Shown here: positions 4,671 to 22,991 of the stretch, piece by piece
Layout of the letters: each line of letters starts with the position of its first letter
Position numbering within the stretch: the first letter of the stretch is position 1
DNA from: Calditrichaceae bacterium
Lineage (GTDB): Bacteria > Calditrichota > Calditrichia > Calditrichales > JBFXGD01
DNA length: 64,000 nucleotides
NCBI GenBank assembly: GCA_050173015.1
Contig: JBFXLE010000004.1
Span: 96,001-160,000, forward strand
Direction: 5' to 3'
Program-made: the position numbers and the translations under genes
Notes under the pieces: model-generated
What the model was told of the DNA's origin: nothing
The model's database searches: none
What the model saw: the letters and a program-made list of their open reading frames with translations, nothing else

Positions 4671-5123
4671 ATGAAATTATTAACGACATTTTTAGTCATC
4701 TTTTTTGCAGCCCTTTCATTATACGGTCAGGAAGTGCAGGTAAAGGAGAAAGTTAAGACGGAAGCCAAAGAAAAAGTACAGATCAAAGAGCAGGCAAAAA
4801 CCGCCGAAAAAGAGCAAGTCCAGGTTAAGAACGAATTGAAAGAACAAGAACAGACTAAAAGCAAAGAAATGATTCAGACCAAAACCAAAAAAGAAGAGCA
4901 GGTAAAAGAAAAAGTTCAGGAAAAAGCGGAAGAAAAGGCGCAGATCAAAACAAAAGAGCAAACAAAAGAACAAACCGGATTTATTGATGAAGACGGCGAC
5001 GGCATCAATGATAAGTCAAAAAAGGATGAAGGAAGTCAGTTTAAGGAAACCAACCGAAATCATTCCGGTGAAGGAACCACAAGCGAAGACGCGGCTAAAC
5101 AGATTCAAAAAGGAAAGAAATAA
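4671..5123 (+). CDS. secreted low-complexity K/E/Q-rich protein with DxDxDG motif
   Basis: SD AAGGAG, signal peptide, KEQVQ/KEKVQ repeats, GFIDEDGDGIND. Confidence 0.75.
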   Translation: MKLLTTFLVIFFAALSLYGQEVQVKEKVKTEAKEKVQIKEQAKTAEKEQVQVKNELKEQEQTKSKEMIQTKTKKEEQVKEKVQEKAEEKAQIKTKEQTKEQTGFIDEDGDGINDKSKKDEGSQFKETNRNHSGEGTTSEDAAKQIQKGKK

Positions 5124-5163
5124 TCATCACGGAAGTTCTAAATCAATAAAACTGAATATAATG

Positions 5164-5188
5164 AAGGAGCAGAGATGCTCCTTTTTTT
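5164..5188 (+). terminator. intrinsic terminator
   Basis: AAGGAGCA-GAGA-TGCTCCTT followed by a T run. Confidence 0.75.
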
Positions 5189-5377: not shown

Positions 5378-5431
5378 AATCTATATTGAAAAATGTAGAT
5401 ATTTCTACAATTTAAACTATAGGTTGTGAGG

Positions 5432-5887
5432 ATGGAAGAGAAAAAAGGCCAAAAAAATGTACTGTATCCCATAGGGATGGTCGCCAAAATTTTTGATATT
5501 TCTGTGGCGACGCTCCGGCTGTATGAAGCGGAGGGATTAATCATTCCACGCAAAAGTAAGGGAGGACATCGTCTGTTTACAGAGGTCGATCTTGACCGTA
5601 TCCACTGTATCAGGGATATGATTGATGAAAAAGGCCTGAATCTGGCGGGAATCCGCATGATGTTGTCGGCAATTCCCTGTTGGGAGTTAAAACCATGCTC
5701 CCTTGAAGAGCGCCAGAGTTGCGACGCTTATTATGAATCCAATTCTCCCTGCTGGATGGTCGAAAATAAAGCTGAAATTTGTGCTAATGAGGACTGTAGT
5801 CAATGTCCCGTATATACGCAATCAAACAATTGTACCAATATAAAAATGATTTTAAAGAAATATTGGAGGGCGAAAGGTAATGGCTAA
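5432..5887 (+). CDS. MerR-family regulator with Cys-rich two-CW-type C-terminal domain
   Basis: YPIGMVAK..TLRLYEAEGLI..GGHRLF HTH; PCWELKPC..C..PCW..C..CSQCPVY..C. Confidence 0.85.
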   Translation: MEEKKGQKNVLYPIGMVAKIFDISVATLRLYEAEGLIIPRKSKGGHRLFTEVDLDRIHCIRDMIDEKGLNLAGIRMMLSAIPCWELKPCSLEERQSCDAYYESNSPCWMVENKAEICANEDCSQCPVYTQSNNCTNIKMILKKYWRAKGNG

Positions 5888-8090
5888 GAAATTCGACAGA
5901 CGCGAATTTATCAAAATTATGGGTGTCGGTACCGGAGGGGTAATGGTCGGTTCATCCATGTTGCAAGCGCTGGATTTTGGTTCGCTTAATGCCGTCACGC
6001 AAGGGGCAATGGACAGAACCCCCACCTACTGCGAGATATGTTTCTGGAAATGCGCCGGATGGGTTTATAAAAAAGATGATAAACCATGGAAGATCGAAGG
6101 TAATCCGGATGATCCAAACAGCAACGGGCGGTTTTGTCCCCGTGGGACAGGCGGTATTGGCGCGTATAACGATCCTGATCGTTTAAAAACACCGCTAATC
6201 AGGGTTGAAGAACGTGGAAAACAGGTTTTCCGTGAAGCCTCCTGGGAAGAAGCGTTCGACTATATCGCTGAAAAAATGATTGATATTAAAGAAAATCATG
6301 GTCCGGAATGCGTGGCTTTGTTTACGCATGGTTCCGGCGGTGATTATTTTAAAACACTATTGCGGGGATACGGTTCAAACAACATCGCAGCTCCGTCATA
6401 CGCTCAGTGCCGCGGGCCGCGTGAAGAAGCTTACATGCTTACTTTTGGCGAGGCGGTCGGTTCTCCGGAAAGAACCGATATCGCTAACAGTAAATGCATC
6501 GTTCTGATCGGATCACATCTTGGTGAAAATATGCATAACGGTCAGGTACAGGAGTTCTCTGAAGCGGTGGCAAAAGGCGCGTCTGTTATCACGGTTGACC
6601 CCAGATTTTCGACGGCCGCCAGCAAATCAAAATATTGGCTTCCGATAAAACCCGGAACGGATATGGCCTTACTTCTTGCCTGGATACATGTCATTATAAA
6701 TGAAGAATTGTATGATAAAAAGTATGTGGAAAAATATACCTATGGATTTGAACAATTAAAGGCAGCGGTTAAGGATAAAACCCCGGAGTGGGCATACACG
6801 AAAACAACAATTAAACCGAACGTCATCCGGGAAACGGCCAGGGAAATGGCTAAAAACGCGCCTGCTACATTAGTGCATCCGGGACGCCATGTTACATGGT
6901 ACGGCGATGATACTCAGCGTGTCAGGGCAGGAGCAATCCTCAATGCGCTGCTCGGCTCCTGGGGACGCAGGGGAGGGTTTTATGTTCCAGCGAAAGCTCA
7001 TCTCGCCAAAGCCAAATTACCTCCGTTTCCGGCAACCAACAAGAGCTGGAAAGACGCGTTCCCCGGGAAATTCCCGCTGGCGAGCCTGGCCCTATCTTCG
7101 GGAATCTGTGACGCCACGATCCCTTCTCCCCAGCATGATTGTTCATTCAAGGGGTGGATCGTATACGGAACAAATCTGCCGCTGACACTTCCGGAACCGA
7201 AAAAAACATTGGAAGCGATTCAAAATCTTGAACTACTTGTGGCGATCGATATCATGCCCGCGGAGATCACCGGTTGGGCCGATGTTGTGCTTCCTGAATG
7301 CACATATTTGGAACGTTACGATGACATAAGAATATCTCCGGGACGCGTTCCGACCATTGCTTTACGCGCGCCGGCATTCGAGCCTAAGTATAATACAAAA
7401 CCGGCATACTGGATGGCCAGGGAACTGTCAAAACGATTGGGTCTTCAGCAATATTTTCCGGCTGAAACGATGGAAAAACATATTGATCAGAGACTCAAGA
7501 CAATCGGCAGCAGTCTGAAAGAAATGAAAAAGATTGGCGTTAAGCGGTTTGAAAACGAATATGACCTCTATTTTCTTAATGGAGAAGATTATGAGTTCGG
7601 CACGCCAACCGGTAAGATCGAATTATACTCAACCACACTAAGCGACGCGGGATTTGATCCAATTCCACAATATACCGCCCATGAGGAACCGCCTGCAAAT
7701 TATTACCGCCTTCTTTACGGACGGGCACCAATGCATACTTTTGGAAGGACAGCAAATAATCCTAACCTGAATGATCTGATGGATGAGAATGAAGTCTGGA
7801 TAAATCCTAAAGTCGCCAAAGAATGGGGAATCAAGAACAGGCAATATATTAAATTAGAGAACCAGGATGGTGTCATATCTAATAAAATTCGCGTAAAAGT
7901 GACTGAACGAATTCGTCATGATTCAGTCTATATGGTTCATGGATTCGGTCACACACAGAAACAAATGACCCGTTCTTATCAGAAGGGTGCAAATGACACG
8001 GGACTGATTAGCAGGGTTAAAGTTGATCCGATTATGGGAGGCACGGGAATGCGTGTTAATTTTGTCACCTTTAAGAGGGAGGTAGCGTAA
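5880..8090 (+). CDS. psrA: polysulfide/thiosulfate reductase molybdopterin subunit (PsrA/PhsA family)
   Basis: Tat signal DRREFIK; CEICFWKC..FCPRG 4Fe-4S; YAQCRGP probable Mo-ligand Cys; WADVVLP and molybdopterin dinucleotide C-domain. Confidence 0.85.
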   Translation: MAKKFDRREFIKIMGVGTGGVMVGSSMLQALDFGSLNAVTQGAMDRTPTYCEICFWKCAGWVYKKDDKPWKIEGNPDDPNSNGRFCPRGTGGIGAYNDPDRLKTPLIRVEERGKQVFREASWEEAFDYIAEKMIDIKENHGPECVALFTHGSGGDYFKTLLRGYGSNNIAAPSYAQCRGPREEAYMLTFGEAVGSPERTDIANSKCIVLIGSHLGENMHNGQVQEFSEAVAKGASVITVDPRFSTAASKSKYWLPIKPGTDMALLLAWIHVIINEELYDKKYVEKYTYGFEQLKAAVKDKTPEWAYTKTTIKPNVIRETAREMAKNAPATLVHPGRHVTWYGDDTQRVRAGAILNALLGSWGRRGGFYVPAKAHLAKAKLPPFPATNKSWKDAFPGKFPLASLALSSGICDATIPSPQHDCSFKGWIVYGTNLPLTLPEPKKTLEAIQNLELLVAIDIMPAEITGWADVVLPECTYLERYDDIRISPGRVPTIALRAPAFEPKYNTKPAYWMARELSKRLGLQQYFPAETMEKHIDQRLKTIGSSLKEMKKIGVKRFENEYDLYFLNGEDYEFGTPTGKIELYSTTLSDAGFDPIPQYTAHEEPPANYYRLLYGRAPMHTFGRTANNPNLNDLMDENEVWINPKVAKEWGIKNRQYIKLENQDGVISNKIRVKVTERIRHDSVYMVHGFGHTQKQMTRSYQKGANDTGLISRVKVDPIMGGTGMRVNFVTFKREVA

Positions 8091-8627
8091 ATGTCTCGAT
8101 ATGCAATGGCTATAGATACAAAACGATGTGTGGGTTGCGCCGATTGCGTTGTTGCCTGCCAGACGGAAAATAATGTTCCGATAGGATACTGTAAAGACTG
8201 GATTGTTGAGGAAATGACCGGTGTCTATCCGGAATTACAGCTTGAAATCCGCTCAGAACGATGCAATCACTGTGAAGACGCGCCCTGTGTGCGTTCCTGC
8301 CCGACCAGCGCCAGTCATTATGAAGAAGGTGGCATTGTTCTGGTGACTCATGAGGAATGTATCGGTTGTAAGGCGTGTATTGCTTCCTGCCCTTACGATG
8401 CAAGATTTGTTCATCCTGAAGGCTATGTGGATAAGTGTACATTTTGTATTCACAGAGTTAAAGACGGAAAAGATCCGGCATGTGTCAGCGTCTGTCCGAC
8501 ACACGCGATGATTTTTGGAGATCTGGATGATCCGAATAGTGAGATCTCAAAAACAATCCGTACGAGAAAAAATAAGACACTCATCCCGGAAGCAGGTACA
8601 AAACCTCATGTTTATTATCTGCTGTAA
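8091..8627 (+). CDS. psrB: 4Fe-4S electron-transfer subunit (PsrB/NrfC/DmsB family)
   Basis: CVGCADCVVAC, CNHCEDAPCVRSCP, CIGCKACIASCPY, KCTFC..PACVSVCP. Confidence 0.9.
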   Translation: MSRYAMAIDTKRCVGCADCVVACQTENNVPIGYCKDWIVEEMTGVYPELQLEIRSERCNHCEDAPCVRSCPTSASHYEEGGIVLVTHEECIGCKACIASCPYDARFVHPEGYVDKCTFCIHRVKDGKDPACVSVCPTHAMIFGDLDDPNSEISKTIRTRKNKTLIPEAGTKPHVYYLL

Positions 8628-8677
8628 AATATGAACCGGTTTTTAGGATTTGTAAATAAAATTTCTGGAGAATCAAA

Positions 8678-9631
8678 ATGAAAGAAATAACCATCACATC
8701 AGGGAGAATGAATCCGGGTATTGATCCGGTGCTTCATGCATGGGGTTGGGAAATCCCTGTTTACCTGTTTCTTGGAGGGCTTGTTGCCGGTATTCTGTTC
8801 TTCTCAACTCTATATTATATCCGCGGCCGACAGAATGACTACCCGACAGCGGTGAAAATCGCGCCGTTATTTGTCCCCGTGTTTTTATCAATCGGATTGC
8901 TGGCGTTGTTTCTCGATTTGTCGCATAAACTCTATTTTTGGCGACTGTACACGACAGTCCGGTGGGAGTCACCGATGTCCTGGGGCGCGTGGACGCTTCT
9001 TTTAATCTTTCCGCTCTCCATACTCTGGATCGCAACATGGATCGAGGATGTATTTCCTAAATGGAACTGGAAATATAAAATATTAAAAATCAGCGCGGAT
9101 TTACTAAAAAATTACCGCAAACTTCTGGCCTGGTCGGTTATGATCCTCGCGCTTATTCTCGGTATGTACACAGGTATTCTGCTTTCCGCCTTTAATGCGC
9201 GTCCATTCTGGAACACATCGATACTCGGGCCCTTATTTCTGGTTTCCGGTTTATCCACAGGAACGGCGTTCATCATTTTGCTGTCAAAATCTCATGAAGA
9301 GAAGAAAAGGTTCAGTCAGATTGATTTAACCCTGATTGGTGCGGAGCTGTTCTTAATCGTTCATATGTTTATGGGATTTCTGGCCAGCACCGAGGTCCAT
9401 ATTCAGGCCGCGGAACTTTTCCTCGGCGGACCGTACACCGCTGTATTCTGGACATTTATCGTCGGATTAGGGCTGGTGATTCCGCTTATTGTAGAGCTTC
9501 TGGAACTTCGCGGCGTGAAGATTCCTTTGCAAATTCCGGCATTGCTTGTGCTTATGGGCGGATTTATTCTGAGATTCATTGTTGTTGACGCCGGGCAGAC
9601 TTCGAGATGGCTGTATAAGTTTTTGGAGTAG
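8678..9631 (+). CDS. psrC: NrfD/PsrC membrane anchor
   Basis: WGWEIPVYLFLGGL, SPMSWGAW, YTGILLS..RPFW; multiple TM helices. Confidence 0.88.
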   Translation: MKEITITSGRMNPGIDPVLHAWGWEIPVYLFLGGLVAGILFFSTLYYIRGRQNDYPTAVKIAPLFVPVFLSIGLLALFLDLSHKLYFWRLYTTVRWESPMSWGAWTLLLIFPLSILWIATWIEDVFPKWNWKYKILKISADLLKNYRKLLAWSVMILALILGMYTGILLSAFNARPFWNTSILGPLFLVSGLSTGTAFIILLSKSHEEKKRFSQIDLTLIGAELFLIVHMFMGFLASTEVHIQAAELFLGGPYTAVFWTFIVGLGLVIPLIVELLELRGVKIPLQIPALLVLMGGFILRFIVVDAGQTSRWLYKFLE

Positions 9632-9641
9632 GGAGGAAGAA

Positions 9642-10178
9642 GAAGTAGGAAGTAAGAAGTAGGAAGTAGGAAGGTTAAGAAAAAAGAAAAAAGAAAAAAG
9701 AAAAAAGATTAAGAACGGTCTGAACCTGGATTAAAATGATTAAATGATTTGGATGATTAAGAAATTGGAAATCAGAGTTGTCATTTAATCAGTCGAATCA
9801 GAGTTCAGACAAAGAAGTAAGAAGTAGGAAGTTGGAAGTGGGAAGTGGGAAGGTTAAGAAAAAAGAAAAAAGAAAAAAGATTAAGAACGGTCTGAACCGG
9901 GATTAAAATGATTAAATGATTTGGATGATTAAGAAATTGGAAATCAGAGTTGTCATTTAATCAGTCGAATCAGAGTTCAGACAAAGAAGTAAGAAGTAGG
10001 AAGTAAGAAGTAGGAAGTGGGAAGGTTAAGAAAAAAGAAAAATGAAAAAAGATTAAGAACGGTCTGAACCGGGATTAAAATGATTAAATGATTTGGATGA
10101 TTAAGAAATTGGAAATCAGAGTTGTCATTTAATCAGTCGAATCAGAGTTCAGACAAAGAAGTAAGAAGTAGGAAGGTT
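9642..10178. repeat. tandem array: three 93-bp imperfect inverted-repeat units at 172-bp period, separated by purine-rich heptamer runs
   Basis: Units GTCTGAAC...GTTCAGAC at 9718-9810, 9890-9982 and 10062-10154; linkers of GAAGTNN and AAGAAAA heptamers. Confidence 0.95.
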
Positions 10179-10279
10179 TAAAAAAAATATTGGGTGAGGA
10201 AGTCCGTGCCCAAAGAAAAAAGTGGATCTTAAAATAAATATAAAGAATAATTCCGGGTTTTAACGAGAGGAATCAAAAG

Positions 10280-10783
10280 ATGAAAGAACAAAAGTATTGG
10301 TCACCCTATTTATCAGGAATTGGCCTGGGGATTACACTCTTGCTGGCTTTTGTGATTATGGGGCGGGGACTTGGCGCTTCCGGTGCCATGATGAGGTTTG
10401 AAGTCTGGTTTCTAAACCTGTTCGCAGCCGATCATGTGGCGGCAAATCCTTATTTTAGCAAATATGCAAATAATCCTTTGTCAAACTGGCTGATTTTTGA
10501 AGTAATTGGTGTCATTATCGGCGGATTTTTATCAGGGGCTCTCGCGGGACGCCTGAAATTTAAAATCGGCAAAGGTCCGAATATTTCAAACAAAGGGCGT
10601 TTAGCTCTTGCTTTTGGTGGAGGCGCCTTAATGGGATTCGCCGCGCGTTTGGCGCGAGGATGTACCAGTGGTCTTGCGCTTACCGGTGGGGCGACGCTCG
10701 CTCTTGGAGGCTGGGTTTTTATGCTGATGATCTTCGCGGGTGGATACATGACCGCATATTTCGTCCGGAGACAGTGGTTATAA
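10280..10783 (+). CDS. YeeE/YedE (TsuA-like) sulfur/thiosulfate transporter, half 1
   Basis: GLGASG, FGGGALMGFAARLARGCTSG. Confidence 0.88.
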   Translation: MKEQKYWSPYLSGIGLGITLLLAFVIMGRGLGASGAMMRFEVWFLNLFAADHVAANPYFSKYANNPLSNWLIFEVIGVIIGGFLSGALAGRLKFKIGKGPNISNKGRLALAFGGGALMGFAARLARGCTSGLALTGGATLALGGWVFMLMIFAGGYMTAYFVRRQWL

Positions 10784-10859
10784 ATCAATGATCGTCAAAG
10801 GGAATATGATCTGATAAGAATTTTAGATCTTCTCGGAAATTTAAATGATGGAGAAAACT

Positions 10860-11450
10860 ATGGCACCCTTTTTTAAAATGGGATTTTTTGGAGAGCAGAC
10901 AAGTTTTATAATCGCTCTGATCCTTGGTATCAGTTTTGGTTTCTGGCTGGAAAGAGCCGGTTTTGGCGACAGCCGTAAATTAGCCCTTCAATTTTATTTT
11001 GAAGATATGACGGTCCTGAAAGTCATGTTTACGGCCATACTGGTGGCGATGGTAGGAATGATGTATATGACCTTGTTTGGCTATCTCGATATTGAAAAAG
11101 TATATATCAATCCGACATATATCTGGGCTCAGACAATCGGCGGACTCGTTTTGGGAGTCGGTTTCGCGATCGGCGGATATTGCCCGGGTACCTCAGTTGT
11201 GGGCGCGGCGACTGGAAGAATTGACGGTTTTGTGTATATTTTGGGAGCTCTGTTCGGGATGTTCGTGTTTGGGGAGATGTTCCCGTTCATCGAAGAGTTC
11301 TATTATGCCGGTTTCATGGGTAACGCGAAGCTGACCGACTTTTTTGGTCTTTCCACCGGTGTGGTGGGACTTCTCGTTATTCTGATGGCCGTGGGTATGT
11401 TTTACGGCGGTGAATGGTTGGAGAGAAAGTTCAGGAAGGAGACTGTATAA
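10860..11450 (+). CDS. YeeE/YedE sulfur transporter, half 2
   Basis: FGFWLERAGF, DMTVLKVMF, GFAIGGYCPGT. Confidence 0.88.
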   Translation: MAPFFKMGFFGEQTSFIIALILGISFGFWLERAGFGDSRKLALQFYFEDMTVLKVMFTAILVAMVGMMYMTLFGYLDIEKVYINPTYIWAQTIGGLVLGVGFAIGGYCPGTSVVGAATGRIDGFVYILGALFGMFVFGEMFPFIEEFYYAGFMGNAKLTDFFGLSTGVVGLLVILMAVGMFYGGEWLERKFRKETV

Positions 11451-12076
11451 TGACATTTTCAAGCAAAACTCTCGGTTTTGGTTTGTTGGTTTTATTGGGT
11501 CTGATTCTGGCATTCTCACCCGTGGATAAGATGAGCCGGAAGCCGGTTACAGCCGAACAACTGATCAAAGAAATCACGACAAAAAAAGATTTTGTTCAGC
11601 CGGAAGACCTGGCGCACTGGATTATTGATAAAGATCCGGGTTTTCAGGTGATTGATGTCCGGTCAAAGGATGACTATGCAAAATATCATATTCCCGGAAG
11701 TGTCAGCATTCCGCTTGAGAAATTGGTCGATTCAGAGAGCAGGGACTATATCTATGCGAATAAAATGTTGATTCTTACTTCAAACGGAAACACAAATGCA
11801 TCCCAGGCCTGGATTTTTATGAAGCAATTGGGATATAAGGAAGTTTATATTCTTTCGGGCGGAATGAATTACTGGGTAGATGTTTTTAGCAATCCTAATC
11901 CTCCGGAAGGTAGCTACACGGACGATGAACTCTTCACTTACCAGTTCCGAAAAGCGGCTGGGCCGGTGATGATGGGAACGGCGGTCGCTACTTCATCCGA
12001 AGTAACAATTGAAGCGCCGGCTCCTGTAAAAAGAGCAATCAGGATGCCAAAGAAAAAGCGTGATGAGGGATGTTAA
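11450..12076 (+). CDS. membrane-anchored/exported rhodanese-domain protein with C-terminal Cys
   Basis: N-terminal hydrophobic helix, VIDVRS..YHIPGS, LSGGMNYW; ends KKKRDEGC. Confidence 0.85.
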   Translation: MTFSSKTLGFGLLVLLGLILAFSPVDKMSRKPVTAEQLIKEITTKKDFVQPEDLAHWIIDKDPGFQVIDVRSKDDYAKYHIPGSVSIPLEKLVDSESRDYIYANKMLILTSNGNTNASQAWIFMKQLGYKEVYILSGGMNYWVDVFSNPNPPEGSYTDDELFTYQFRKAAGPVMMGTAVATSSEVTIEAPAPVKRAIRMPKKKRDEGC

Positions 12077-12085
12077 GATTACCTG

Positions 12086-12120
12086 AAGCAGGGCAGATAA
12101 TTTCTGCTCTGCTTTTTTTT
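12086..12120 (+). terminator. intrinsic terminator between the convergent operons
   Basis: AAGCAGGGCAGA-TAATT-TCTGCTCTGCTT followed by a T run. Confidence 0.75.
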
Positions 12121-13759
12121 ATTTGTTGAATAGTTCTTCTATGCCGTCGTTTTTAAATGCCCTTGTCCGCCACTTTTTGTAATCCGCCGATTTTTCCAAC
12201 AATCTTCGTTGTTCCTGACTGTTTAATAAACGGCTTCCCGGTATAACAGGTTCGGTCGGCAGAGTTATTGAATTTGAAACGGAGTTCGAAAAAGCATTGC
12301 GAATTCCCAATCCGGCGGCTTTGGTATTACCGTGACAGCTTTCACAGACGCGCCCACTCTTCCCGGTTGTGTGGGGTGTGTACGCATCCCATGACCAACC
12401 GGGGCGCCCGTCAGATCTTTTCGGGATGACCGAATCAAGCCATAAATTTTCACTGGAATCCACATACGTTATAAAATACTGATGTAGCGGTCGGATAATT
12501 GAGTATTTTCCATTGGAATTTACTCCCAGCACGGGATCTTCCCATCGTCTGAACGACCAGCCTTTATACCAGATTCCGGTTGATTCCACACCTGTTAAAC
12601 GATTGGGCGAATGAGCGGTTGGCCGTACTGTCGGATCAATCAGAAACATATCGGTCAATAAATTGATAACGGATTTATCTCCCTGCCAAATCAAATTTTC
12701 CCATATTTCATAATGTTTGGTTTCATCCAGAAAAAGATGAAGACCGTAATCCTGGTATGACCATTGCGCGTGACACGAACCGCAGGTTAAATCCGCGTGA
12801 AAATCCATATGTGATATGATGTCTTTATTAAATTTTATTACATCTTTTTTATTTGGAGCTTGTTTAAATCCGCCGTGGCAATTTTCGCACCTGATATCCG
12901 AAGGCTGCTCTCCAAATTTTCTATTTCGGAAATCACCCATGACACTCTGTGAAGTGTGACAGTCAAGACATGTCATACCCGCATTCTGATGCACATCGGT
13001 AGCGAGACGGTGCTGATAGGCGCCGAAGAAGGGTTGGCTTCCGTAAGGCGTCGCGTATTCCTGATGATAGTCATGTTCAAAATAACCATAATAGTCACCA
13101 CCGATATGATTATTTGAATGACAAGTCAGACAGGTTTTATCCACAACTTTTTTCTGCATTTTATGACCATGCAGGGGCTCACCATTTTTCTGATCGAAGG
13201 GAATATGACAAGATGCGCATCCGCCGGCTCTTATTTTACCAGGCTGCTCATCCTTCCCTGAAGCGTTAAAGTGACAGGAAAGACATTTTTTTGCCAGCAG
13301 ATTGTCCACGAGCTCCGGAGGGGTCGTACCTGTGGCGCGTCCTGTTCTGCCCAGCAGTTTCCATTGATCGGGATCAGGATTCGTAACAAGCGTTTTGTCT
13401 TTTCCCCAAAGATATCTGGTCTGTGAGATCATTCCCCCGGCAGAGTAGTGAAGGCTGTTTTTAAATTGAGTGATTTCTTTTTGATGACAGCTGAGACATT
13501 TTTCACGCCACCATTTTTCTAATGAAGGATTTTGTATCACACGCGAATGACCTGCCTGATCGGGTTGAAAATCAGCGTTTGGTGAGGAATGACAGTCCGC
13601 GCAGGTAATATTGCAGCTGGATTCAATACCCTTATGACAATCAACGCAGTTCTCGCCCGCGTATCCGGCGGACACGACCATGAGCAATAAAACCTGAAGG
13701 CTTATTTGTCGGATTAACCTCACAGAATAACAACTCTTAATCATCAATTTTTTCTGCAT
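12119..13759 (-). CDS. multiheme cytochrome c (10 CxxCH)
   Basis: Counted CVDCH, CADCH, CLSCH x2, CASCH, CLTCH, CLDCH, CENCH, CGSCH, CESCH; signal-like N-terminus. Confidence 0.9.
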   Translation of the reverse strand: MQKKLMIKSCYSVRLIRQISLQVLLLMVVSAGYAGENCVDCHKGIESSCNITCADCHSSPNADFQPDQAGHSRVIQNPSLEKWWREKCLSCHQKEITQFKNSLHYSAGGMISQTRYLWGKDKTLVTNPDPDQWKLLGRTGRATGTTPPELVDNLLAKKCLSCHFNASGKDEQPGKIRAGGCASCHIPFDQKNGEPLHGHKMQKKVVDKTCLTCHSNNHIGGDYYGYFEHDYHQEYATPYGSQPFFGAYQHRLATDVHQNAGMTCLDCHTSQSVMGDFRNRKFGEQPSDIRCENCHGGFKQAPNKKDVIKFNKDIISHMDFHADLTCGSCHAQWSYQDYGLHLFLDETKHYEIWENLIWQGDKSVINLLTDMFLIDPTVRPTAHSPNRLTGVESTGIWYKGWSFRRWEDPVLGVNSNGKYSIIRPLHQYFITYVDSSENLWLDSVIPKRSDGRPGWSWDAYTPHTTGKSGRVCESCHGNTKAAGLGIRNAFSNSVSNSITLPTEPVIPGSRLLNSQEQRRLLEKSADYKKWRTRAFKNDGIEELFNK

Positions 13760-15522
13760 GGCAGGTGGCTCTCATTCCGGTACCTTTCGATACTTTGTTC
13801 AAAATTTCTATAAATGGCGTCATTATAGGTATCATGACAGGTGATACAAAGACTAACCCTGTAAATGTTTTTGATCTCTTTCATGTCAAACGGGCGGGCG
13901 GTGAGTCTTGACATGCGTTGGGTCAGCCTGCCCTGACCATCGGTCATCATCTCAAGGCTAGTTTTCCCAAGGCCGGCCGTTTGCGTATCGTACAGTTGCT
14001 GTGTTTCGAAACCATTTTCTCGCGGTTTCAGAAATCCTTCTCCCATTCCTAGACGCTTGATATTACTGTGGCAATCTATACATTCCGGCACTGATTTTCT
14101 TGTAGAATGCGGATCAAACGGGGCCATGGTCAGCCAGGTTTTTTGCTGTCTGATCTGCAAAGAGTCATTCAGTTCGGTTAAATACACCTGGCATCCGGGA
14201 GCGAAGGGCATAACCCGATCCAGATTGTCCACACCGAGTGTGGGTTTTTCATAGCGCAGGTATGAGCGTCCCTCACGCCAGTGGCCGAATGTTTCCTCAT
14301 TGCTGACTTTGTCAAGCTGTTTTTTGGTGGGATCGTAAATATCATGACAACCGTAACACTGCGGCGTATAAGCGGAGTGACAGGACTGACATCCCATCCT
14401 ATCATGTCCCTGAAAATTACAGGCTTCATTATTTTTGTTTTGCGGAATTTCCAGCTCTTTACCGTCAAGTTTTCTGGTCAGCACGGGCTTTCCCGACCGC
14501 ATTTCTACATTGGCGTAAAATGAACCGCGGGTTGTTCTTGCCAACAGGGAATCATCCGGCATCATAAGATTTTGGTTGACAGATATAATTTTCCATACAA
14601 TATTATCCGCGGGAGGACGTTCAAATTCCGCGTCATGACAGTCTTCACATTTGATATGCACCTGCTGTTCAAGGTGCTCGTATCTTTTGCCGTCTCCCAT
14701 GATATCTTCCGCGACATGGCAGTCGATACAGGTCATTCCCGCGTCAAAATGGACATCCGCTGTTATATGATAGTAAAATCTGCCGCCTGAGAGTTCCATT
14801 TGGGAAGTATTTCCGCCCTCATAGGGTGTGCCGTATCCTTCTGATTCAAATTTTCCCTGATAGGTCAGCGCTGTTCTGTTGGAGCGGTTATGGCATTTTT
14901 CACAGGTCGGGATATCGATTTCCACACTCAGCGTTGGATGTATTTTCAAATTCTCGTTTTTCACCAGGTGACAATCGTTGCATCCGCCACCGCGTTCTCC
15001 GATTTCTCCGGGGAAATCATTTTCGCGTTTATTGATATGACAACTCGCGCAAAGCTTTCGGAGATGCGAGGTCGCCAGCGAAGTGTCCGGAATGTTCTGA
15101 TCTATATGAAGCGTGGAATCATCGGGAGTTGATTTTTCATACCATTGATAGAGAGTTGACGCAACCAGTCCTGAATTTGAAGTCATTATGGAATTTTTAA
15201 CGGAATGCGCCAGATCGGAATGGCATTCGCTTTTACCGCAGGTTTGGTCAACCCAGTGTAGATCGGATGGATTCCTGACCATGCCGTAGTGCGCGTTTCT
15301 TTCATCGGCTGCATCCGGATTTCCGAGATGACAGGTGTAACATCCAAAGATTTTATTTGGGTGTGAAGAACTCATATCCTTCTCATCAGCATGACAGGAA
15401 ATACAGCGGTCAGGCCGATTAAGGGCGTTTATGTTATCATTCGTGCCGTTATTCTGTATGGTTAAAATGATAACCAGAAGAAGAATCAAAATTGAAAGAA
15501 TTAAATATGTCCGGGGTTTCAT
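13744..15522 (-). CDS. membrane-anchored multiheme cytochrome c (11 CxxCH + one CX4CH)
   Basis: CISCH, CYTCH, CGKSECH, CASCH, CNDCH, CEKCH, CIDCH x2, CEDCH, CQSCH, CYGCH, CITCH; N-terminal TM helix; start MKPRT overlaps the cytochrome b stop. Confidence 0.9.
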   Translation of the reverse strand: MKPRTYLILSILILLLVIILTIQNNGTNDNINALNRPDRCISCHADEKDMSSSHPNKIFGCYTCHLGNPDAADERNAHYGMVRNPSDLHWVDQTCGKSECHSDLAHSVKNSIMTSNSGLVASTLYQWYEKSTPDDSTLHIDQNIPDTSLATSHLRKLCASCHINKRENDFPGEIGERGGGCNDCHLVKNENLKIHPTLSVEIDIPTCEKCHNRSNRTALTYQGKFESEGYGTPYEGGNTSQMELSGGRFYYHITADVHFDAGMTCIDCHVAEDIMGDGKRYEHLEQQVHIKCEDCHDAEFERPPADNIVWKIISVNQNLMMPDDSLLARTTRGSFYANVEMRSGKPVLTRKLDGKELEIPQNKNNEACNFQGHDRMGCQSCHSAYTPQCYGCHDIYDPTKKQLDKVSNEETFGHWREGRSYLRYEKPTLGVDNLDRVMPFAPGCQVYLTELNDSLQIRQQKTWLTMAPFDPHSTRKSVPECIDCHSNIKRLGMGEGFLKPRENGFETQQLYDTQTAGLGKTSLEMMTDGQGRLTQRMSRLTARPFDMKEIKNIYRVSLCITCHDTYNDAIYRNFEQSIERYRNESHLPCRKN

Positions 15523-16430
15523 CTGTTTAAAAATTGCCATCCATCCCCTCGAAAATATGTACCAATGATGCTTTCAATCATATAAATAATAATCATAAGG
15601 AGTATAAAATACAGCACGGACTTTTCAAATTTCTTTACTACCGGTAACAGAAAGAAGGCGATGAGTATCAGCGAGGGGAAAACAACACCAGCGATCGAAA
15701 CCGGCAGCCAGGCAAGAAGTTCCTGCAATCCGATGAAGTACCAGGGTCCTTTTACAACTTCAATAACCGCGTCCGGTCTGAATCCCAGTTTTGCGGGAAA
15801 CAAAATTGCAAAAAGTGAGATCAATATGATTGTATATGCAAACGCGTACCGCTCCGATTTTAATCTGTGAATATGAATATAGGTAAGAATCACGGATAAG
15901 ATTGAAAAAGTGGCCGCGTGATGCGTATAGATTACCGCCAGCGGTGTTGTTGAACGTTCCGACTGCAGGAGAAAGTTTGACAGAGTATTCCCAAGCGCGG
16001 GAAGCGTTTGCAGGATTCCGTCAAAGATATGCACCGCGGAAAAACTTTCCTTGCTGCCGATACTTAAAAATCCGCTGAAGACGGTAAGAATGGAGATTAC
16101 GAACAGAATGATAAGCAATCCCCATGATTTCATGGTATAGCTTTGATAAGTTTTTTTTAAAAGATATTCAATGATATGGATGACTGTTGAAATTAGAAAT
16201 ATATCACCCGCGTAAGAATGGAAACCGTGTAAAAAAGCACCCATATAGCCGGCGCTGATGAATTGACTGACACTCCGGAATGGATCGTCGCCGGAAATAT
16301 AGAAGGGTATGAGCATTAATCCTGAAATCAGGGCTAATACAAGGCTGCTGAGTGAAATTTCCCCCCAGCCCGGCATCCACAATGTTTTTTCAAAAAAGAC
16401 TGATCGGTTCAAGATTTTATCCATTTTCAA
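15519..16430 (-). CDS. cytochrome b of a Rieske/cytochrome b complex
   Basis: His pairs FHSYAGDIFLISTVIH and HHAATFSILSVILTYIH; KGPWYF at the PEWY position. Confidence 0.82.
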   Translation of the reverse strand: MKMDKILNRSVFFEKTLWMPGWGEISLSSLVLALISGLMLIPFYISGDDPFRSVSQFISAGYMGAFLHGFHSYAGDIFLISTVIHIIEYLLKKTYQSYTMKSWGLLIILFVISILTVFSGFLSIGSKESFSAVHIFDGILQTLPALGNTLSNFLLQSERSTTPLAVIYTHHAATFSILSVILTYIHIHRLKSERYAFAYTIILISLFAILFPAKLGFRPDAVIEVVKGPWYFIGLQELLAWLPVSIAGVVFPSLILIAFFLLPVVKKFEKSVLYFILLMIIIYMIESIIGTYFRGDGWQFLNR

Positions 16431-16436
16431 AAAAGA

Positions 16437-16832
16437 TCAAATAATTATCTCAATATCATTCGTTTCGTTGAGTTTATAATCCAGATCGGTCAGATTTTTT
16501 TTTGCCGGTCCGGATAAATAATTCCCTTCATTGTCAAATTTGCTGCCGTGACAGGGGCAGATGAACATTTTGCTGTTTTCGTTAAAATTTACGGTGCATC
16601 CCAAATGAGTACATTTTTTTGAAATGATGCGCAATTTTTGATGGTCAGTTCTGACAAAGAAAAATTCGGTTTCCTTCAGGTCTTTCAATTTTAATTTTAG
16701 AACATGTTTCTTTTGGGAAATACGATTTAAAAAACCGGAAAATGGAAAATACAAAAGACCTGCAGCCAGAAATAAAATTCTCCGGCCTAATGTATGTAAA
16801 AATGTGCGGCGTTTGTAAGTGTTTTCCGACAT
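16437..16832 (-). CDS. Rieske 2Fe-2S subunit
   Basis: KRRTFL Tat-like motif, CTHLGC, CPCHGSKF. Confidence 0.92.
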   Translation of the reverse strand: MSENTYKRRTFLHTLGRRILFLAAGLLYFPFSGFLNRISQKKHVLKLKLKDLKETEFFFVRTDHQKLRIISKKCTHLGCTVNFNENSKMFICPCHGSKFDNEGNYLSGPAKKNLTDLDYKLNETNDIEIII

Positions 16833-16872
16833 ATCAATTATTTTTTTGTGAGACTATTTTATATGATAAGGG

Positions 16873-18012
16873 TTAGATCCCCGATGAGTCATTCTTCTCC
16901 CGGACAGTTGTTTCGACTGTTAAAACCTGGATGAAGAGCTGTGTCATAAAACTGTCCAATCTCCTGATTCCCTTATTATCTCCGGATACGATCCAGCTTT
17001 GCCGGATAATTTGTTTAAATAAGGGGAACAATCCAATTATAGATTCAATTTCCGGCGAATAGTGTATTTTTTTTCTGCTCAAATATGACCTGAGTTTGTT
17101 GATCACTATCGGTCCTAATATAAAGTACCAGATAGTCATTATAAGAACGGATCTCGCTACCATTAATAAAGCTGCTGTTCCTTGGTTTTTCTCAAATACG
17201 GGAAAAATATAGGACAAAATCAGGATCGATGATATAATCACGAGTAGCATTATATTGGAAAATTTATGCCAGGGACGTTTTCTTTTCTTTTTTTTCGGAG
17301 GATTATCCGCTTTATCAGAATCCACAGTCAGATTCAACGATACCGGATTGTTTTTTAATTCGTTTTTTATTTTAACGCTAAGGATAGGCGCCCAAACACC
17401 TGCCGATACACCGGCCGCAACGTGAATGCCTACATATAGAATGATAAATAAGGCGCTGATGCTGAGTGGCAGGGAATCCGTTCCTGAAAGAAAAAGTTGA
17501 CCAAGAATATATTCTGTAAACAAGTCAATCGAATTCCACAGATTATTACCGAAAACAACGGTCAAAATGATGATTTTCTGAATTCCCGATTGAAACAAGG
17601 CCAGAGCTCCGAGGATGGGAGCGGCTATACCGGGGTATTTTATCCATCGGAATATAAATTCACCGAACAAACCCTGCAAACCCACGGCGATATACGCGGT
17701 AATCGGTGTGTGTGGACTGACAAGACCTTTCACAATTAAAACCAATAGAGTGGCGCGGAGAATGGTGTTTTTTTTATCCGAAAAACAAGCGATAAGCGTC
17801 ATAAATATCACAGCGCTGCTGCCGATTATCAATCCGGTGAACGGGATTTTAAATGCATGCAGAATGCCTCCGAGTCCTGCTTCGCTTAAGGCCCAAAGCG
17901 CTGTAATTCGGTCGATAGCTCTCGTACGGGAAAAGTAATACCCGGCCGGAGAATCATTGGTAATCATTGTATTTTTGATGGGATTATTCATTTTTCTTGC
18001 TTCAGGTATCAC
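16873..18012 (-). CDS. uncharacterised polytopic membrane protein
   Basis: 379-aa ORF with many TM segments (ALWALSEAGLGGILH..); 4-nt overlap with mobA. Confidence 0.7.
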   Translation of the reverse strand: MIPEARKMNNPIKNTMITNDSPAGYYFSRTRAIDRITALWALSEAGLGGILHAFKIPFTGLIIGSSAVIFMTLIACFSDKKNTILRATLLVLIVKGLVSPHTPITAYIAVGLQGLFGEFIFRWIKYPGIAAPILGALALFQSGIQKIIILTVVFGNNLWNSIDLFTEYILGQLFLSGTDSLPLSISALFIILYVGIHVAAGVSAGVWAPILSVKIKNELKNNPVSLNLTVDSDKADNPPKKKKRKRPWHKFSNIMLLVIISSILILSYIFPVFEKNQGTAALLMVARSVLIMTIWYFILGPIVINKLRSYLSRKKIHYSPEIESIIGLFPLFKQIIRQSWIVSGDNKGIRRLDSFMTQLFIQVLTVETTVREKNDSSGI

Positions 18013-18644
18013 TCTGTCTGATCAGGAAACTCATCTGTCTGCATCAATCTTGCCAGGTCTTCCCGGGTATTGACATTATAAAAGTATTCGGGTTTATACC
18101 CCGGCATATTATTGGGGATATCGACCTGAACGGCGTTTAAGCGTGAAAGAAGTTTGTGCAGACTGTAATTTCCCTCACGGATTGACTGTTCGACGATCCT
18201 TAATGCGTTGGCCGGCCAGATAGAGACCAAGGGCTCGATACCCTTATCGGACTTTGCGACAACTGCTTGATCGGCCGATCGGGAGTTCATCATATAATGA
18301 TACACTTTTGCCGAAAGGCGGGGCATATCACATGGCAGAACGGCAATCCATTGGTCCGGGAAACAGGCCAGCGCCGTATAGATACCGCCAATAGGCCCCC
18401 GGTCGGTAACTTTGTCCCGCACAGACCTGATGTGATCAAAATATTTGATCTCTTCCGGGCCTGAAACGATAACGATATTGTCCGCGATACCTTCAGCCAG
18501 CCCGGCGGCCCAGTCTATAAGTCGCTTATTTTTATAGACAGCTGTGACCTTCGAAGTACCAAATCTGGCGCTTTTTCCACCGGCAATGATCGCCGCGGAA
18601 AGTGCATTTATATTTTCCAAACATTTCTCATAGTAAATGATCAT
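18009..18644 (-). CDS. mobA: molybdenum cofactor guanylyltransferase
   Basis: IIAGGKSARFG, GPIGGIYTAL, VLPCDMP, IEPL, FYNVNT. Confidence 0.9.
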   Translation of the reverse strand: MIIYYEKCLENINALSAAIIAGGKSARFGTSKVTAVYKNKRLIDWAAGLAEGIADNIVIVSGPEEIKYFDHIRSVRDKVTDRGPIGGIYTALACFPDQWIAVLPCDMPRLSAKVYHYMMNSRSADQAVVAKSDKGIEPLVSIWPANALRIVEQSIREGNYSLHKLLSRLNAVQVDIPNNMPGYKPEYFYNVNTREDLARLMQTDEFPDQTE

Positions 18645-18738: not shown

Positions 18739-18771
18739 AAAAAAGCCTTTCCCGGTGAAGGGAAAGGCTTT
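18739..18771 (-). terminator. intrinsic terminator
   Basis: AAAGCCTTTCCC-GGTGAA-GGGAAAGGCTTT with an A run on the left. Confidence 0.75.
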
Positions 18772-18787
18772 AAACCTGACGGTTTTG

Positions 18788-19417
18788 TTAAATGACGCCG
18801 CGTAATCTCATAATTTCTTCATGCAATGCCTGTTGTCCGTCGGAAGTACTGACATCCGCATTAAAACTGGCATTTAATTTCTGAACTTCAGTCAGGCTGC
18901 CATCGAAATCACCGAGCCAGAAATAATCCTGGGCCATACACAATTGTAAATCCTTGTAATCCAGATCGATTCCGATGGACGGAGAATTATAGGTGAATGA
19001 CCAGTTAGCCTCATTGCTGATTGCCATTGAGGCGTGCACAATAGAATTGTCATATAAACCGAGAACGAGTTCGGCAAAAGCCATACCTGCATACAGATCA
19101 TTGCTTGAAATGTTCAGGTCATCTGCGGAGTCAAAATAATCGTATGCCGTCGCGATTTCTCCCAATTTGGAATAACTCCAGGCAAGACCGAGATGGGCTG
19201 CAAATTCATTCGGGTTGTCAGAAAGGGCGGTATCAAAATATCCAATGGCTTCCTGATAATTTCCCGCCTTAAACGCATTCCAGCCACTAACGCTCGCGTC
19301 AGATATTGTCGTGCCATCGTCCTTATTGCTCGTAGAATCTGAACTGCAGCCGACAAATGCAATAGAAAATATTAATATCAGCCACAAATTATATAACAGA
19401 AGTTTTTTGATTTTCAT
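18788..19417 (-). CDS. TPR-repeat lipoprotein
   Basis: Lipobox FVGC; TPR-like GWNAFKAGNYQEAIGYF..AHLGLAWSY. Confidence 0.8.
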   Translation of the reverse strand: MKIKKLLLYNLWLILIFSIAFVGCSSDSTSNKDDGTTISDASVSGWNAFKAGNYQEAIGYFDTALSDNPNEFAAHLGLAWSYSKLGEIATAYDYFDSADDLNISSNDLYAGMAFAELVLGLYDNSIVHASMAISNEANWSFTYNSPSIGIDLDYKDLQLCMAQDYFWLGDFDGSLTEVQKLNASFNADVSTSDGQQALHEEIMRLRGVI

Positions 19418-19442
19418 AATAAAGCTCCTTATCCAATCTGTT

Positions 19443-22346: not shown

Positions 22347-22991
22347 AAAAACCTCCTTCAATAAGTTAGATTTGTAGATGGTGAAAAAAGTTGTTACAAA
22401 TATTATTAAAATCCCGGGCGGTATATTGACCGTGCCAGGTAAATATAATCATAATTCAACCTTCAATTTTGCAGGAGATAATCTCATATCGATTCGTACA
22501 CGGGTTAAAATTAAATGAAATCTTTTTTCCTTTGTCCGTTTACCAAAATTGTTAATCCGGGTTTAAATAAGAGCCCCGGGTCAAATCTGCTTCCCGATTA
22601 AAAAGGGAAGATGACTAAAACTATCAGGATATTTATCCAGTAACGCTGTAATGATAAATTAGTCATGTCCTTTTTTTGGTGAAAATTCTGAATAGTTTTG
22701 TGATATTTTAAAGGGGAATATAAACAATAATCATCGGGGAGCTTTGATCTACGTCAAAAGAATGGAGATTCATAACACTTTATTCTATAAAATTGTTAAT
22801 AAATATGGCTAAAAAATAGGGAAATGTTTAAAAATTGATAAATTTTACCGAATATTAAAGAAATAGTACTGTCTATAAATCATATAAAATTAATGACTTA
22901 CAAAAATTATACGGGAATATTTTGATATAAAACACATTTAATTTGATTTGGAATAAAAAAAAGACCTTTTTTAAGGCTTTTTTTTGTTTGC

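Follow-up and report, generated by a model that had tools for sequence, protein, structure and literature searches.

A Psr-type reductase locus of Calditrichaceae linked to an Ext-like Rieske/cytochrome b-multiheme cytochrome complex

The literature on Geobacter describes a gene cluster, ext, that went for a long time under the label "bc complex" and is conserved in every Geobacter genome examined. It encodes a 12-heme cytochrome (ExtM), a 10-heme cytochrome (ExtN), a 14-kDa Rieske protein (ExtO), a cytochrome b (ExtP), and a membrane protein (ExtQ), together with the rhodanese ExtH, the porin ExtI, ExtJ, ExtKL, and ExtS (PMC5877670, PMC2825233), and loss of extI impairs reduction of both selenite and tellurite (PMC5877670). 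A November 2025 preprint identifies ExtKL as MccSep, a periplasmic pentaheme selenoprotein polysulfide reductase without which Geobacter does not respire S0. S0 induces the enzyme, and its gene lies directly upstream of gsu2935 (extM); the preprint also draws a mechanism for selenite, as a second substrate. In the accessible part of the preprint the electron donor of the enzyme is not named, and the word "Rieske" is absent from the paper (bioRxiv 10.1101/2025.11.18.688581). The same literature, as far as it is accessible, assigns ExtMNOPQ no role in sulfur reduction. Here we describe a locus of a Calditrichaceae bacterium (assembly GCA_050173015.1, contig JBFXLE010000004.1) in which genes for an Ext-like complex stand beside genes for a different polysulfide-type enzyme, the Mo-dependent PsrABC. 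The locus (the island, positions 5432..18644) lies in a 64,000-nt stretch of DNA, referred to here as the window, in which genes were called from a list of open reading frames (ORFs) and their translations, Pfam, and NCBIfam.

The island comprises two gene strings that face each other. The plus-strand string (arm 1) consists, in order, of a gene for a MerR-like regulator, psrA, psrB, psrC (of the NrfD type), a tandem repeat, two genes for YeeE half-proteins, and a rhodanese gene. The minus-strand string (arm 2) runs from mobA through genes for a 379-aa membrane protein, a Rieske protein, and a fused cytochrome b to those for a 12-heme and a 10-heme cytochrome. An earlier note on this DNA had described most of this inventory. 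All the gene identities that it named are supported by Pfam and NCBIfam, and its heme "wire" of more than 20 hemes indeed counts 22 (10 plus 12); what it overlooked is the regulator, the 379-aa protein, and a 172-bp repeat. Its comparison with the Geobacter ext/cbc clusters likewise stands: the 12-heme protein (598 aa) matches the NCBIfam ExtM model over its full length (311 bits, E = 1e-92; residues 41-579 against profile positions 17-586 of 599, with a cutoff of 800), and there are matches to the ExtP and ExtQ models. Like Geobacter extHIJKLMNOPQS (GSU2940-2930), the island encodes 12- and 10-heme cytochromes, a Rieske protein of ~14 kDa, and cytochrome b plus a small membrane part, and it holds a rhodanese-family protein and a polysulfide-reducing enzyme in one locus. 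Unlike ext, it has the order Rieske-b-12 heme-10 heme rather than M-N-O-P-Q, its counterparts of ExtP and ExtQ are fused, and, as judged by Pfam and a CXXCH scan, the window lacks the porin ExtI, ExtJ, ExtS, and a pentaheme selenoprotein. The reductase is instead PsrABC, which brings a quinol anchor of its own; a YeeE pair comes in addition, and the rhodanese is a single-domain protein of 208 aa with a C-terminal Cys, in contrast to the 49-kDa ExtH.

The pairing of these two arms recurs. A locus set was assembled from a one-genome-per-species scan with an alignment of the 12-heme protein, keeping the best 80 of 315 relatives with 10-kb flanks, and the window proteins were compared with all six-frame ORFs of the 80 loci (BLASTP, E < 1e-6). 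Genes were counted as PsrA-like at 35% identity or more; one contig-end case was also counted (L004, in which the contig stops inside psrC), and L054, in which a 28%-identical Mo enzyme follows the cytochrome pair without Rieske/b, was left out. The cytochrome pair is present almost everywhere in the set, and in 30 loci Rieske and/or cytochrome b genes lie directly upstream of it. A PsrA-like gene occurs in the sampled flank at 11 of these 30 Rieske/b loci and at none of the other 50 (Fisher P = 5e-6, for loci that are not independent). Sorted by flank, Psr is present at 3 of the 8 loci whose flanks reach 5 kb or more on each side, at 6 of the 13 with one long side, and at 2 of the 9 with short flanks. 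In a tree of 77 ExtM-like sequences (quick IQ-TREE, with Shimodaira-Hasegawa-like approximate likelihood ratio test support only; L002, L077, L079, and L080 were too short and were left out), Psr-linked rows make up 6 of 18 in Calditrichota (window included), 1 of 4 in a clade of high-GC metagenome-assembled genomes, and 5 of 7 in Campylobacterota plus Desulfurellaceae, with none in the 43-row Desulfobacterota clade or the 5-row WOR-3 clade. In ~45 Desulfobacterota loci (L025-L064 and others), the cytochrome pair follows thrS-infC-rplT-pheST and a small MerR gene.

The relative orientation of the arms varies from locus to locus. They converge in the window, L004, L006, and L009 and diverge in L065 and L078, while L008 carries a single co-directional string, MerR-PsrABC-YeeE-YeeE-Rhd-Rieske-cytb-cyt-cyt, and L034, L072, L075, and L076 have other co-directional layouts. 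All seven neighboring Mo subunits tested have PhsA as their best family (481-521 bits). The YeeE pair and the rhodanese recur beside the Mo enzyme in Calditrichota, L034, and L078, and extra genes in the Campylobacterota strings encode a TorD-like chaperone, a ~390-aa NrfD protein, and a tandem rhodanese (L078 has the YeeE pair too). One Calditrichaceae locus (L012, 13670-21784) contains two adjoining Mo-enzyme/YeeE-pair/GC-tail-rhodanese cassettes: the one directly downstream of the cytochromes has an anchor of the cytochrome b561 type (PhsC-like), and the other is of NrfD type and convergent. Adjacency that survives rearrangement over such distances indicates selection for linkage. The earlier note had proposed that rare co-occurrence of the arms would speak for chance adjacency; Psr lies beside the module in three clades and in several orientations, and chance does not account for the adjacency, which is nonetheless not obligatory.

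Calditrichota, Campylobacterota, and two other lineages thus place the complex that Geobacter keeps with MccSep beside a different, Mo-dependent polysulfide-type reductase and a rhodanese. That the same complex accompanies different reductases suggests that its link is to a chemistry, periplasmic chalcogen reduction, and not to one enzyme. No published account of an Ext-type Rieske/b complex with a linked Psr-type enzyme came to light, subscription journals being mostly outside the coverage. Every part of the island belongs to a known kind, and the combination and the putative thiol-tail carrier described below are variants. The linked gene strings offer organisms in which the connection of arm 2 with sulfur becomes testable, and for annotation they mean that "Psr" loci and "bc complexes" of Calditrichota should be read together.

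PsrA carries an RREFIK twin-arginine leader and aligns end to end with Thermus thermophilus PsrA (2VPW; 718 bits), and the Cys of its C..PRE motif aligns with the Cys of 2VPW in the same motif. We take this Cys to be the Mo ligand. One survey lists Cys as the Mo ligand of the Psr/Phs/Srr lineage (PMC7331816). The best NCBIfam family of PsrA is PhsA, at 495 bits and below the equivalog cutoff of 694; judged from its sequence, PsrA lies within the Psr/Phs/Srr lineage and is not an equivalog of Salmonella PhsA. PsrB matches the NCBIfam models DsrO, NrfC, ArrB, and a TtrB-like one, all below cutoff. A published criterion distinguishes Psr from Phs by an NrfD-type eight-helix anchor in place of the heme-b PhsC (PMC12949373), and under it the NrfD-type anchor found by Pfam makes the enzyme Psr-like rather than Phs-like. 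According to the same source, PsrA, PhsA, and SrrA intermix in trees and are separated only by operon content (PMC12949373), so that the phylogeny of PsrA proposed in the earlier note would not settle the substrate.

The locus resembles T. thermophilus PsrABC (PDB 2VPW-2VPZ) in the full-length PsrA match, the Cys in the active-site region, PsrB, and the NrfD-type PsrC, and it resembles the Psr/Sud system of Wolinella succinogenes in encoding a periplasmic rhodanese-fold helper beside the enzyme. Sud is the sulfur carrier for Wolinella Psr. Unlike both systems, the window has a helper without a Cys in its domain, and a YeeE pair, a MerR regulator, and a facing Rieske/b operon are added. A further relative, SrrABCDEF of Bacillus selenitireducens, is an enzyme of the PsrA lineage with an NrfD anchor, whose operon adds the chaperone SrrD and the rhodanese-domain proteins SrrE and SrrF (PMC12481199, PMC12949373). 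The window shares with Srr, the operon details of which come from secondary sources, a PsrA-lineage enzyme, an NrfD anchor, and a rhodanese in the operon; unlike Srr, it has no SrrD-type (TorD/NarJ) chaperone and only a single, atypical rhodanese.

The YeeE/TsuA thiosulfate transporter is one polypeptide of ~330 aa, whereas the window encodes two half-size proteins. Together they span both halves of the Sulf_transp profile, with one Cys motif each; the corresponding Cys residues, C128 of half 1 and C113 of half 2, are each invariant in eight sequences. The halves match both the TsuA and the selenium-linked YedE models of NCBIfam, with best scores of ~50 and ~30 bits against cutoffs of 200-645. 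The rhodanese gene follows directly, its start overlapping the preceding yeeE stop (an alternative upstream ATG lies at 11414). The sole Cys of its product is the C-terminal residue (..KKKRDEGC). Among 88 family members collected at E <= 0.001, of which those named by source are Calditrichota, 86 contain one Cys and no more, and in 86 the last two residues are Gly-Cys, in 76 cases as part of DEGC; one other ends in GGCS. The terminal Cys of the family is preceded by a Lys/Arg-rich stretch. An AlphaFold2 (AF2) model (predicted local distance difference test score, pLDDT, 81.5) shows an N-terminal helix and a rhodanese domain and leaves the chain beyond residue 174 unstructured, and a Foldseek search with this model returned 141 rhodanese-type PDB matches at E <= 0.001. 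The protein thus lacks the classical active-site Cys, and the one thiol that it has is placed by the model on a flexible tail. Catalytic rhodaneses (GlpE, PspE, Sud), with an active-site Cys inside the rhodanese domain, share the fold and differ from the window protein, which has no Cys there. A complex prediction of the two YeeE halves with the rhodanese scored 0.22 against a mark of 0.32, which gives no verdict either way.

A carrier with comparable features is known from Sox systems: SoxY is a swinging-arm carrier with a single Cys next to a Gly at a flexible C-terminus. The window rhodanese has likewise a single Cys beside a Gly at a flexible C-terminus, a likeness that we offer as an analogy only. 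It differs from SoxY in its rhodanese fold, in its ..DEGC-COOH end after a Lys/Arg stretch, and in the lack of accompanying Sox genes, and its role as a carrier is putative. This small rhodanese family, with its only thiol at the C-terminus, is a candidate new sulfur carrier; no described rhodanese family with a C-terminal Cys was found in the literature, from whose coverage subscription journals were mostly absent. A C-terminal Cys as a general feature of tandem (ExtH-like) rhodaneses was considered and rejected: among the 120 relatives listed for the tandem rhodanese of L023, three end in GC and two in GGCE. No Geobacter protein is among those 120.

By sequence, the 598-aa cytochrome of arm 2 is an ExtM homologue and not an equivalog. 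The smaller cytochrome (546 aa) is its paralogue (27% identity, E = 1e-39) and matches ExtM with 153 bits and ExtN with 104 bits (a partial match; cutoff, 200). All 12 heme motifs of the larger protein are invariant in 77 sequences, and its CX4CH motif aligns with an ordinary CXXCH of the paralogue. In the 10-heme family (61 sequences) all 10 motifs are conserved, with eight conserved nonmotif His residues for the 10 hemes. M119 of the 12-heme protein aligns with an invariant His of the paralogue, which suggests a His/Met-ligated heme in the 12-heme protein, and nonmotif Cys residues are found at C450 in 76 of 77 sequences and at C595 in 69 of 77. The case for position 450 as an axial ligand, drawn from a His of the paralogue, was weakened by the paralogue-family column, which holds Y in 47, F in 7, and H in 6 sequences. 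The N-terminal membrane helix of the 12-heme protein indicates that it probably stands in place of cytochrome c1. For the 12-heme protein, Foldseek found no PDB match at E <= 0.001 with an AF2 model of mean pLDDT 67.8, poor in the heme-rich N-terminal half, and a sequence search of the PDB with both cytochromes gave only marginal matches to NrfA and NrfB (E = 0.008 or worse). Cytochrome b scores best against ExtP (68 bits) and, over its C-terminal third, against ExtQ (25 bits), both below cutoff. Across 29 sequences neither its four b-heme His residues (71, 85, 171, and 186) nor its G-P-W motif (228-230) varies, and the G-P-W-[YF]-F motif occupies the PEWY position. In the Rieske protein, C74, H76, C79, C92, C94, and H95 are invariant in 25 sequences.

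We read the island as one functional unit for periplasmic chalcogen respiration, comprising two menaquinol-oxidizing complexes and a sulfur-handling set, a proposition that we regard as evenly balanced. PsrC would take electrons from quinol, PsrB would relay them, and the Mo-bis(pyranopterin guanine dinucleotide) (Mo-bisPGD) site of PsrA would cleave S-S (or Se-O) bonds; the substrate is most likely elemental sulfur or polysulfide, with thiosulfate, tetrathionate, and selenite as alternatives. The two YeeE halves would form a membrane channel for a sulfur anion. The rhodanese would be held at the membrane by its N-terminal helix, with its single thiol terminating a basic and disordered tail ~30 residues long. 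In a Sud-like role with swinging-arm geometry, this thiol may carry sulfane sulfur, bound as a persulfide or polysulfide, between the protein and the reductase and channel, in either direction. Arm 2 would oxidize quinol at a Qo-like site with the G-P-W-[YF] motif and pass electrons from the Rieske protein to the membrane-anchored 12-heme cytochrome (with at least one His/Met-type heme, and replacing cytochrome c1) and on to the soluble 10-heme paralogue. From there they may be delivered, with proton-motive gain, to periplasmic chalcogen species or to a carrier-bound intermediate, and the acceptor of arm 2 would have a higher potential than that of Psr; the two arms may also be in direct contact. 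PsrABC would then fill the place that MccSep holds in the Geobacter cluster, as a nonorthologous replacement, and the position of mobA in the minus-strand operon would tie PsrA maturation to arm 2 expression in this genome. The earlier note had offered sharing of the quinone pool as the mechanism, which is true of any two quinol-linked complexes and supplies none. Its further suggestions, disproportionation or electron transfer to or from insoluble acceptors, found no evidence: the window has no porin or outer-membrane cytochrome, and an ORF scan of the window found no further ORF with two or more CXXCH motifs.

Several observations weigh against such a unit, and most of them bear on an unlikely alternative, that the arms are independent modules. 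The Rieske/b-multiheme module would then be a general quinol:periplasmic-cytochrome oxidoreductase serving Nap, epsilon-Hao, or other enzymes, with no more than a tendency to lie near respiratory genes, and PsrABC-YeeE-rhodanese an ordinary, self-contained polysulfide/thiosulfate locus. PsrABC is self-sufficient for quinol oxidation, since PsrC gives it a quinol site of its own, and nothing requires arm 2. For a Rieske Q cycle the acceptor must normally have a potential well above that of the quinone, and the potential of polysulfide is below it, which makes it thermodynamically awkward for arm 2 to feed polysulfide reduction; on these grounds a higher-potential acceptor (selenite, tetrathionate, or a carrier-bound intermediate) is more plausible for arm 2, or else oxidative operation of the chain. 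No Psr is seen in the sampled flank of 19 of the 30 Rieske/b loci, including 5 of the 8 with full flanks (L014, L018, L022, L036, and L023, the last with a rhodanese only), and the Desulfobacterota cytochrome pairs, found without Rieske/b or Psr, indicate that the pair can work without either. The module has varied neighbors, among them type IX secretion system (T9SS) proteins, a histidine kinase with sigma-54 regulators, and an NHL protein with another cytochrome. A palindrome search of the window and the 80 loci found no operator common to both arms, and mobA, which the earlier note had pointed out at the head of the opposite operon, is a weak link, accompanying the island only in the window, L001, and, at another position, L009 among the 80 loci. 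All Ext, PhsA, and MobA scores fall below the NCBIfam equivalog cutoffs. For ExtMNOPQ itself, a role in S0 or selenite reduction by Geobacter is given in the accessible literature as a hint only ("preliminary studies").

Caldithrix abyssi, of the same phylum, likewise has a Rieske and cytochrome b pair without a monoheme c1 (Cabys_2558/2557), and a C. abyssi protein 59% identical to the 12-heme protein exists. According to its genome description, this pair is the only Rieske/cytochrome b set of the organism, it lies in a Nap-epsilonHao locus, and it was proposed to pass electrons to periplasmic multiheme cytochromes, while psrABC (Cabys_1269-1267) is ~1,300 gene numbers away and no S0 or thiosulfate respiration was found (PMC5317091). 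There, unlike in the window, Rieske/b is tied to nitrate/nitrite reduction and psrABC is far off, as independent modules would have it. Independence accounts less well for Psr at 11 of the 30 Rieske/b loci against 0 of 50, given that a random 20-kb flank should rarely hold a Psr-type gene, or for a linkage that survives inversions, spans three deep clades, and includes the co-directional strings of L008, L034, L072, L075, and L076. It would also leave aside that Geobacter has independently clustered the same complex with a polysulfide reductase and a rhodanese.

The energetics also bear on two alternatives that keep the arms together. Sulfide lies below menaquinone, and menaquinone below the Rieske cluster and the c hemes, a natural and complete chain if electrons ran in the oxidative direction. 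Psr would then act in reverse as a sulfide or polysulfide dehydrogenase reducing menaquinone, the Rieske/b complex would run a Q cycle, the 22 hemes would lead to a periplasmic terminal reductase or an external acceptor, and YeeE and the rhodanese would traffic oxidized sulfur. For Epsilonproteobacteria that have several psr copies, a Psr working in reverse has been suggested (as cited in PMC6896113), the C. abyssi module adjoins Nap and Hao (PMC5317091), and the His/Met-type heme proposed for the 12-heme protein would fit such a chain. The window, however, encodes neither a terminal reductase nor an outer-membrane conduit, the precedent from Geobacter runs in the reductive direction (bioRxiv 10.1101/2025.11.18.688581), and nothing in the sequence shows the direction; we consider oxidative operation quite unlikely. 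We judge as decidedly improbable that the island serves selenite or tellurite respiration or detoxification, with an Srr-type Mo enzyme, an Ext-like high-potential energy-conserving route, and YeeE/YedE and the thiol-tailed rhodanese handling selenium. Selenite/Se0 is a high-potential couple that would suit a Rieske complex, NCBIfam titles the Ext families "selenite/tellurite reduction operon," the YeeE halves match selenium-linked YedE models as well as TsuA, and the Campylobacterota loci have the TorD-like chaperone, the ~390-aa NrfD protein, and the tandem rhodanese. The effect of extI loss (PMC5877670) points the same way, as does Srr, the one known respiratory selenite reductase, which is of the PsrA lineage and comes with a chaperone and rhodanese proteins (PMC12481199, PMC12949373). 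Against it, PsrA, PhsA, and SrrA are indistinguishable by sequence (PMC12949373), the newest work assigns the Geobacter enzyme to S0/polysulfide and selenite to second place (bioRxiv 10.1101/2025.11.18.688581), and the window has neither a chaperone nor selenium-utilization genes.

A bolder form of the favored reading, which we regard as a long shot, joins both arms in one carrier-based sulfur respiratory machine. The rhodanese thiol would take up sulfane sulfur from polysulfide or at the YeeE channel and swing with it to a sulfur-reactive heme of the Ext-like cytochromes and, in turn, to the Mo site of PsrA; C450 and C595 of the 12-heme protein could give His/Cys ligation. Reduction of one chalcogen chain would then proceed at two potentials, with a Q cycle coupled to the upper step. 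If true, the machine would mirror the carrier logic of Sox in the reductive direction and would explain the function of ExtMNOPQ beside MccSep in Geobacter.

Table 1. Features of the island and its borders, with positions in the window
Feature	Positions	Strand	Evidence or remark
MerR-family regulator, Cys-rich C-terminus	5426..5887	+	Pfam MerR_1, E 1e-17
PsrA/PhsA/SrrA-lineage Mo-bisPGD catalytic subunit, Tat-exported	5880..8090	+	Pfam Molybdopterin, Molydop_binding, Fe4S4
PsrB-type four-cluster iron-sulfur subunit	8091..8627	+	Pfam Fer4_11 and related
PsrC, NrfD-type quinol-oxidizing membrane anchor	8678..9631	+	Pfam NrfD, E 2e-46, residues 21-308 of 317
Tandem repeat, 172 bp x 3.1, in the psrC-yeeE gap (650 bp)	9640..10175	.	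Tandem Repeats Finder score 972, 95% matches
YeeE/YedE half-protein 1, RGCTSG motif, 167 aa	10280..10783	+	Pfam Sulf_transp, E 4e-24, C-terminal profile half
YeeE/YedE half-protein 2, GGYCPGT motif, 201 aa	10845..11450	+	Pfam Sulf_transp, E 2e-14, N-terminal profile half
Single-domain rhodanese-fold protein, membrane-anchored or secreted, 208 aa	11450..12076	+	Pfam Rhodanese
Intrinsic-terminator-like hairpin and T-run	12085..12123 (stem 12085-12115)	+	13 pairs, 6 GC
10-heme periplasmic cytochrome c, 546 aa, putative ExtN counterpart	12119..13759	-	10 CXXCH, signal peptide
12-heme cytochrome c, 598 aa, ExtM homologue, N-terminal membrane helix	13744..15540	-	11 CXXCH and 1 CX4CH
Cytochrome b, b6-like and subunit-IV-like fusion (ExtP + ExtQ)	15519..16430	-	Pfam Cytochrome_B
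Rieske 2Fe-2S protein, 131 aa, RRTFL leader	16437..16832	-	Pfam Rieske
Polytopic membrane protein, 379 aa, no known family	16873..18012	-	Overlaps mobA by 4 nt
MobA-like molybdenum cofactor guanylyltransferase	18009..18644	-	Pfam NTP_transf_3, E 2e-28
Terminator-like hairpin, parts tetratricopeptide repeat (TPR)/T9SS genes from mobA	18742..18771	-	12-pair stem and T-run

The boundaries of the island agree with the earlier description of two operons meeting at one terminator (Table 1). The stop codons at 12076 (+) and 12119 (-) lie 42 nt apart and flank one hairpin, the strongest terminator-like match of the region; its T-run is present on the plus side only, so that two-way termination is not evident from the sequence. 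At the other end, mobA heads the opposite operon, as had been proposed: a hairpin (18771-18742) lies upstream of it, and the genes from mobA, the first, to the final cytochrome overlap or are separated by no more than 40 nt. Identities of 97% and 88% mark the nearest relatives of the 598-aa cytochrome, the second of them named as Calditrichaceae, and locus L001 (88% identical) shares the layout of the window. The remaining genes of the window are housekeeping or miscellaneous, and an Rfam search at E <= 1 over window positions 1-26000 gave no match.

The regulator gene overlaps psrA by 8 nt and is conserved ahead of psrA in L006, L008, and L009. An alignment of four sequences shows eight invariant Cys residues, seven of them in the C-terminal domain and including two Cys-Trp pairs, and the protein is a candidate sensor of a metal cluster or of persulfide. 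A perfect 6-4-6 palindrome (5394-5409) lies 17 nt upstream of the merR start, and the window holds three matches to it at two or fewer mismatches, where 1.4 are expected. As an operator shared by the two arms it was rejected, having no counterpart near arm 2 and being absent from all 80 loci.

The three copies of the 172-bp repeat between psrC and yeeE are 90-100% alike. Each unit consists of a purine tract, (GAAGTRG)n plus (AAGAAAA)n, followed by a hairpin of ~93 nt, and each copy holds a promoter-like TTAAGA-17-TAAAAT site; the predicted fold of one unit has -31.7 kcal/mol (z -4.1). The repeat has no Rfam match and no further copy in the window, and it is absent from the relatives, where psrC abuts yeeE.

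At the head of arm 2, the MobA-like protein scores 118 bits against NCBIfam MobA, below the cutoff of 164. The 379-aa protein has a central poly-Lys loop, and its gene is translationally coupled to mobA. It has no match in NCBIfam or, even at E = 5, in Pfam; Atlas returned only unnamed Bacteroidota-type clusters (0.96-0.98) and a weak Trep_Strep lead (0.76). Among the 80 loci, the protein is present only in L001. With regard to the other arm 2 genes, the NCBIfam model NF040968 (FeS_ExtO; 416 positions) matched the multiheme cytochromes over the ExtN stretch and not the Rieske protein, and the model may describe the wrong gene. In one Campylobacterota locus a PemK/MazF-like toxin ORF (L076, 8468-8872) separates the Rieske gene from that for cytochrome b, and the thrS-infC-rplT-pheST surroundings of the Desulfobacterota loci are an odd context for a 22-heme pair.

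Just upstream of the island, a plus-strand gene (4671-5123) encodes a secreted protein of 150 aa that consists almost wholly of Lys/Glu/Gln-rich repeats and has no family; a terminator-like hairpin (5163-5184) comes after it. Immediately upstream of the Rieske operon, on the minus strand (18788-22361), lie genes for a TPR lipoprotein and for a T9SS-sorted protein of 972 aa with CARDB and DUF11 domains. Homologues of the latter (39-43% identity) occur near the Rieske operon in L008, L014, L016, and L018, with three copies in L018, and in L016 and L018 one of them is directly upstream of the Rieske operon on the same strand. The 972-aa protein could be a surface partner or merely a member of an abundant paralogue family.

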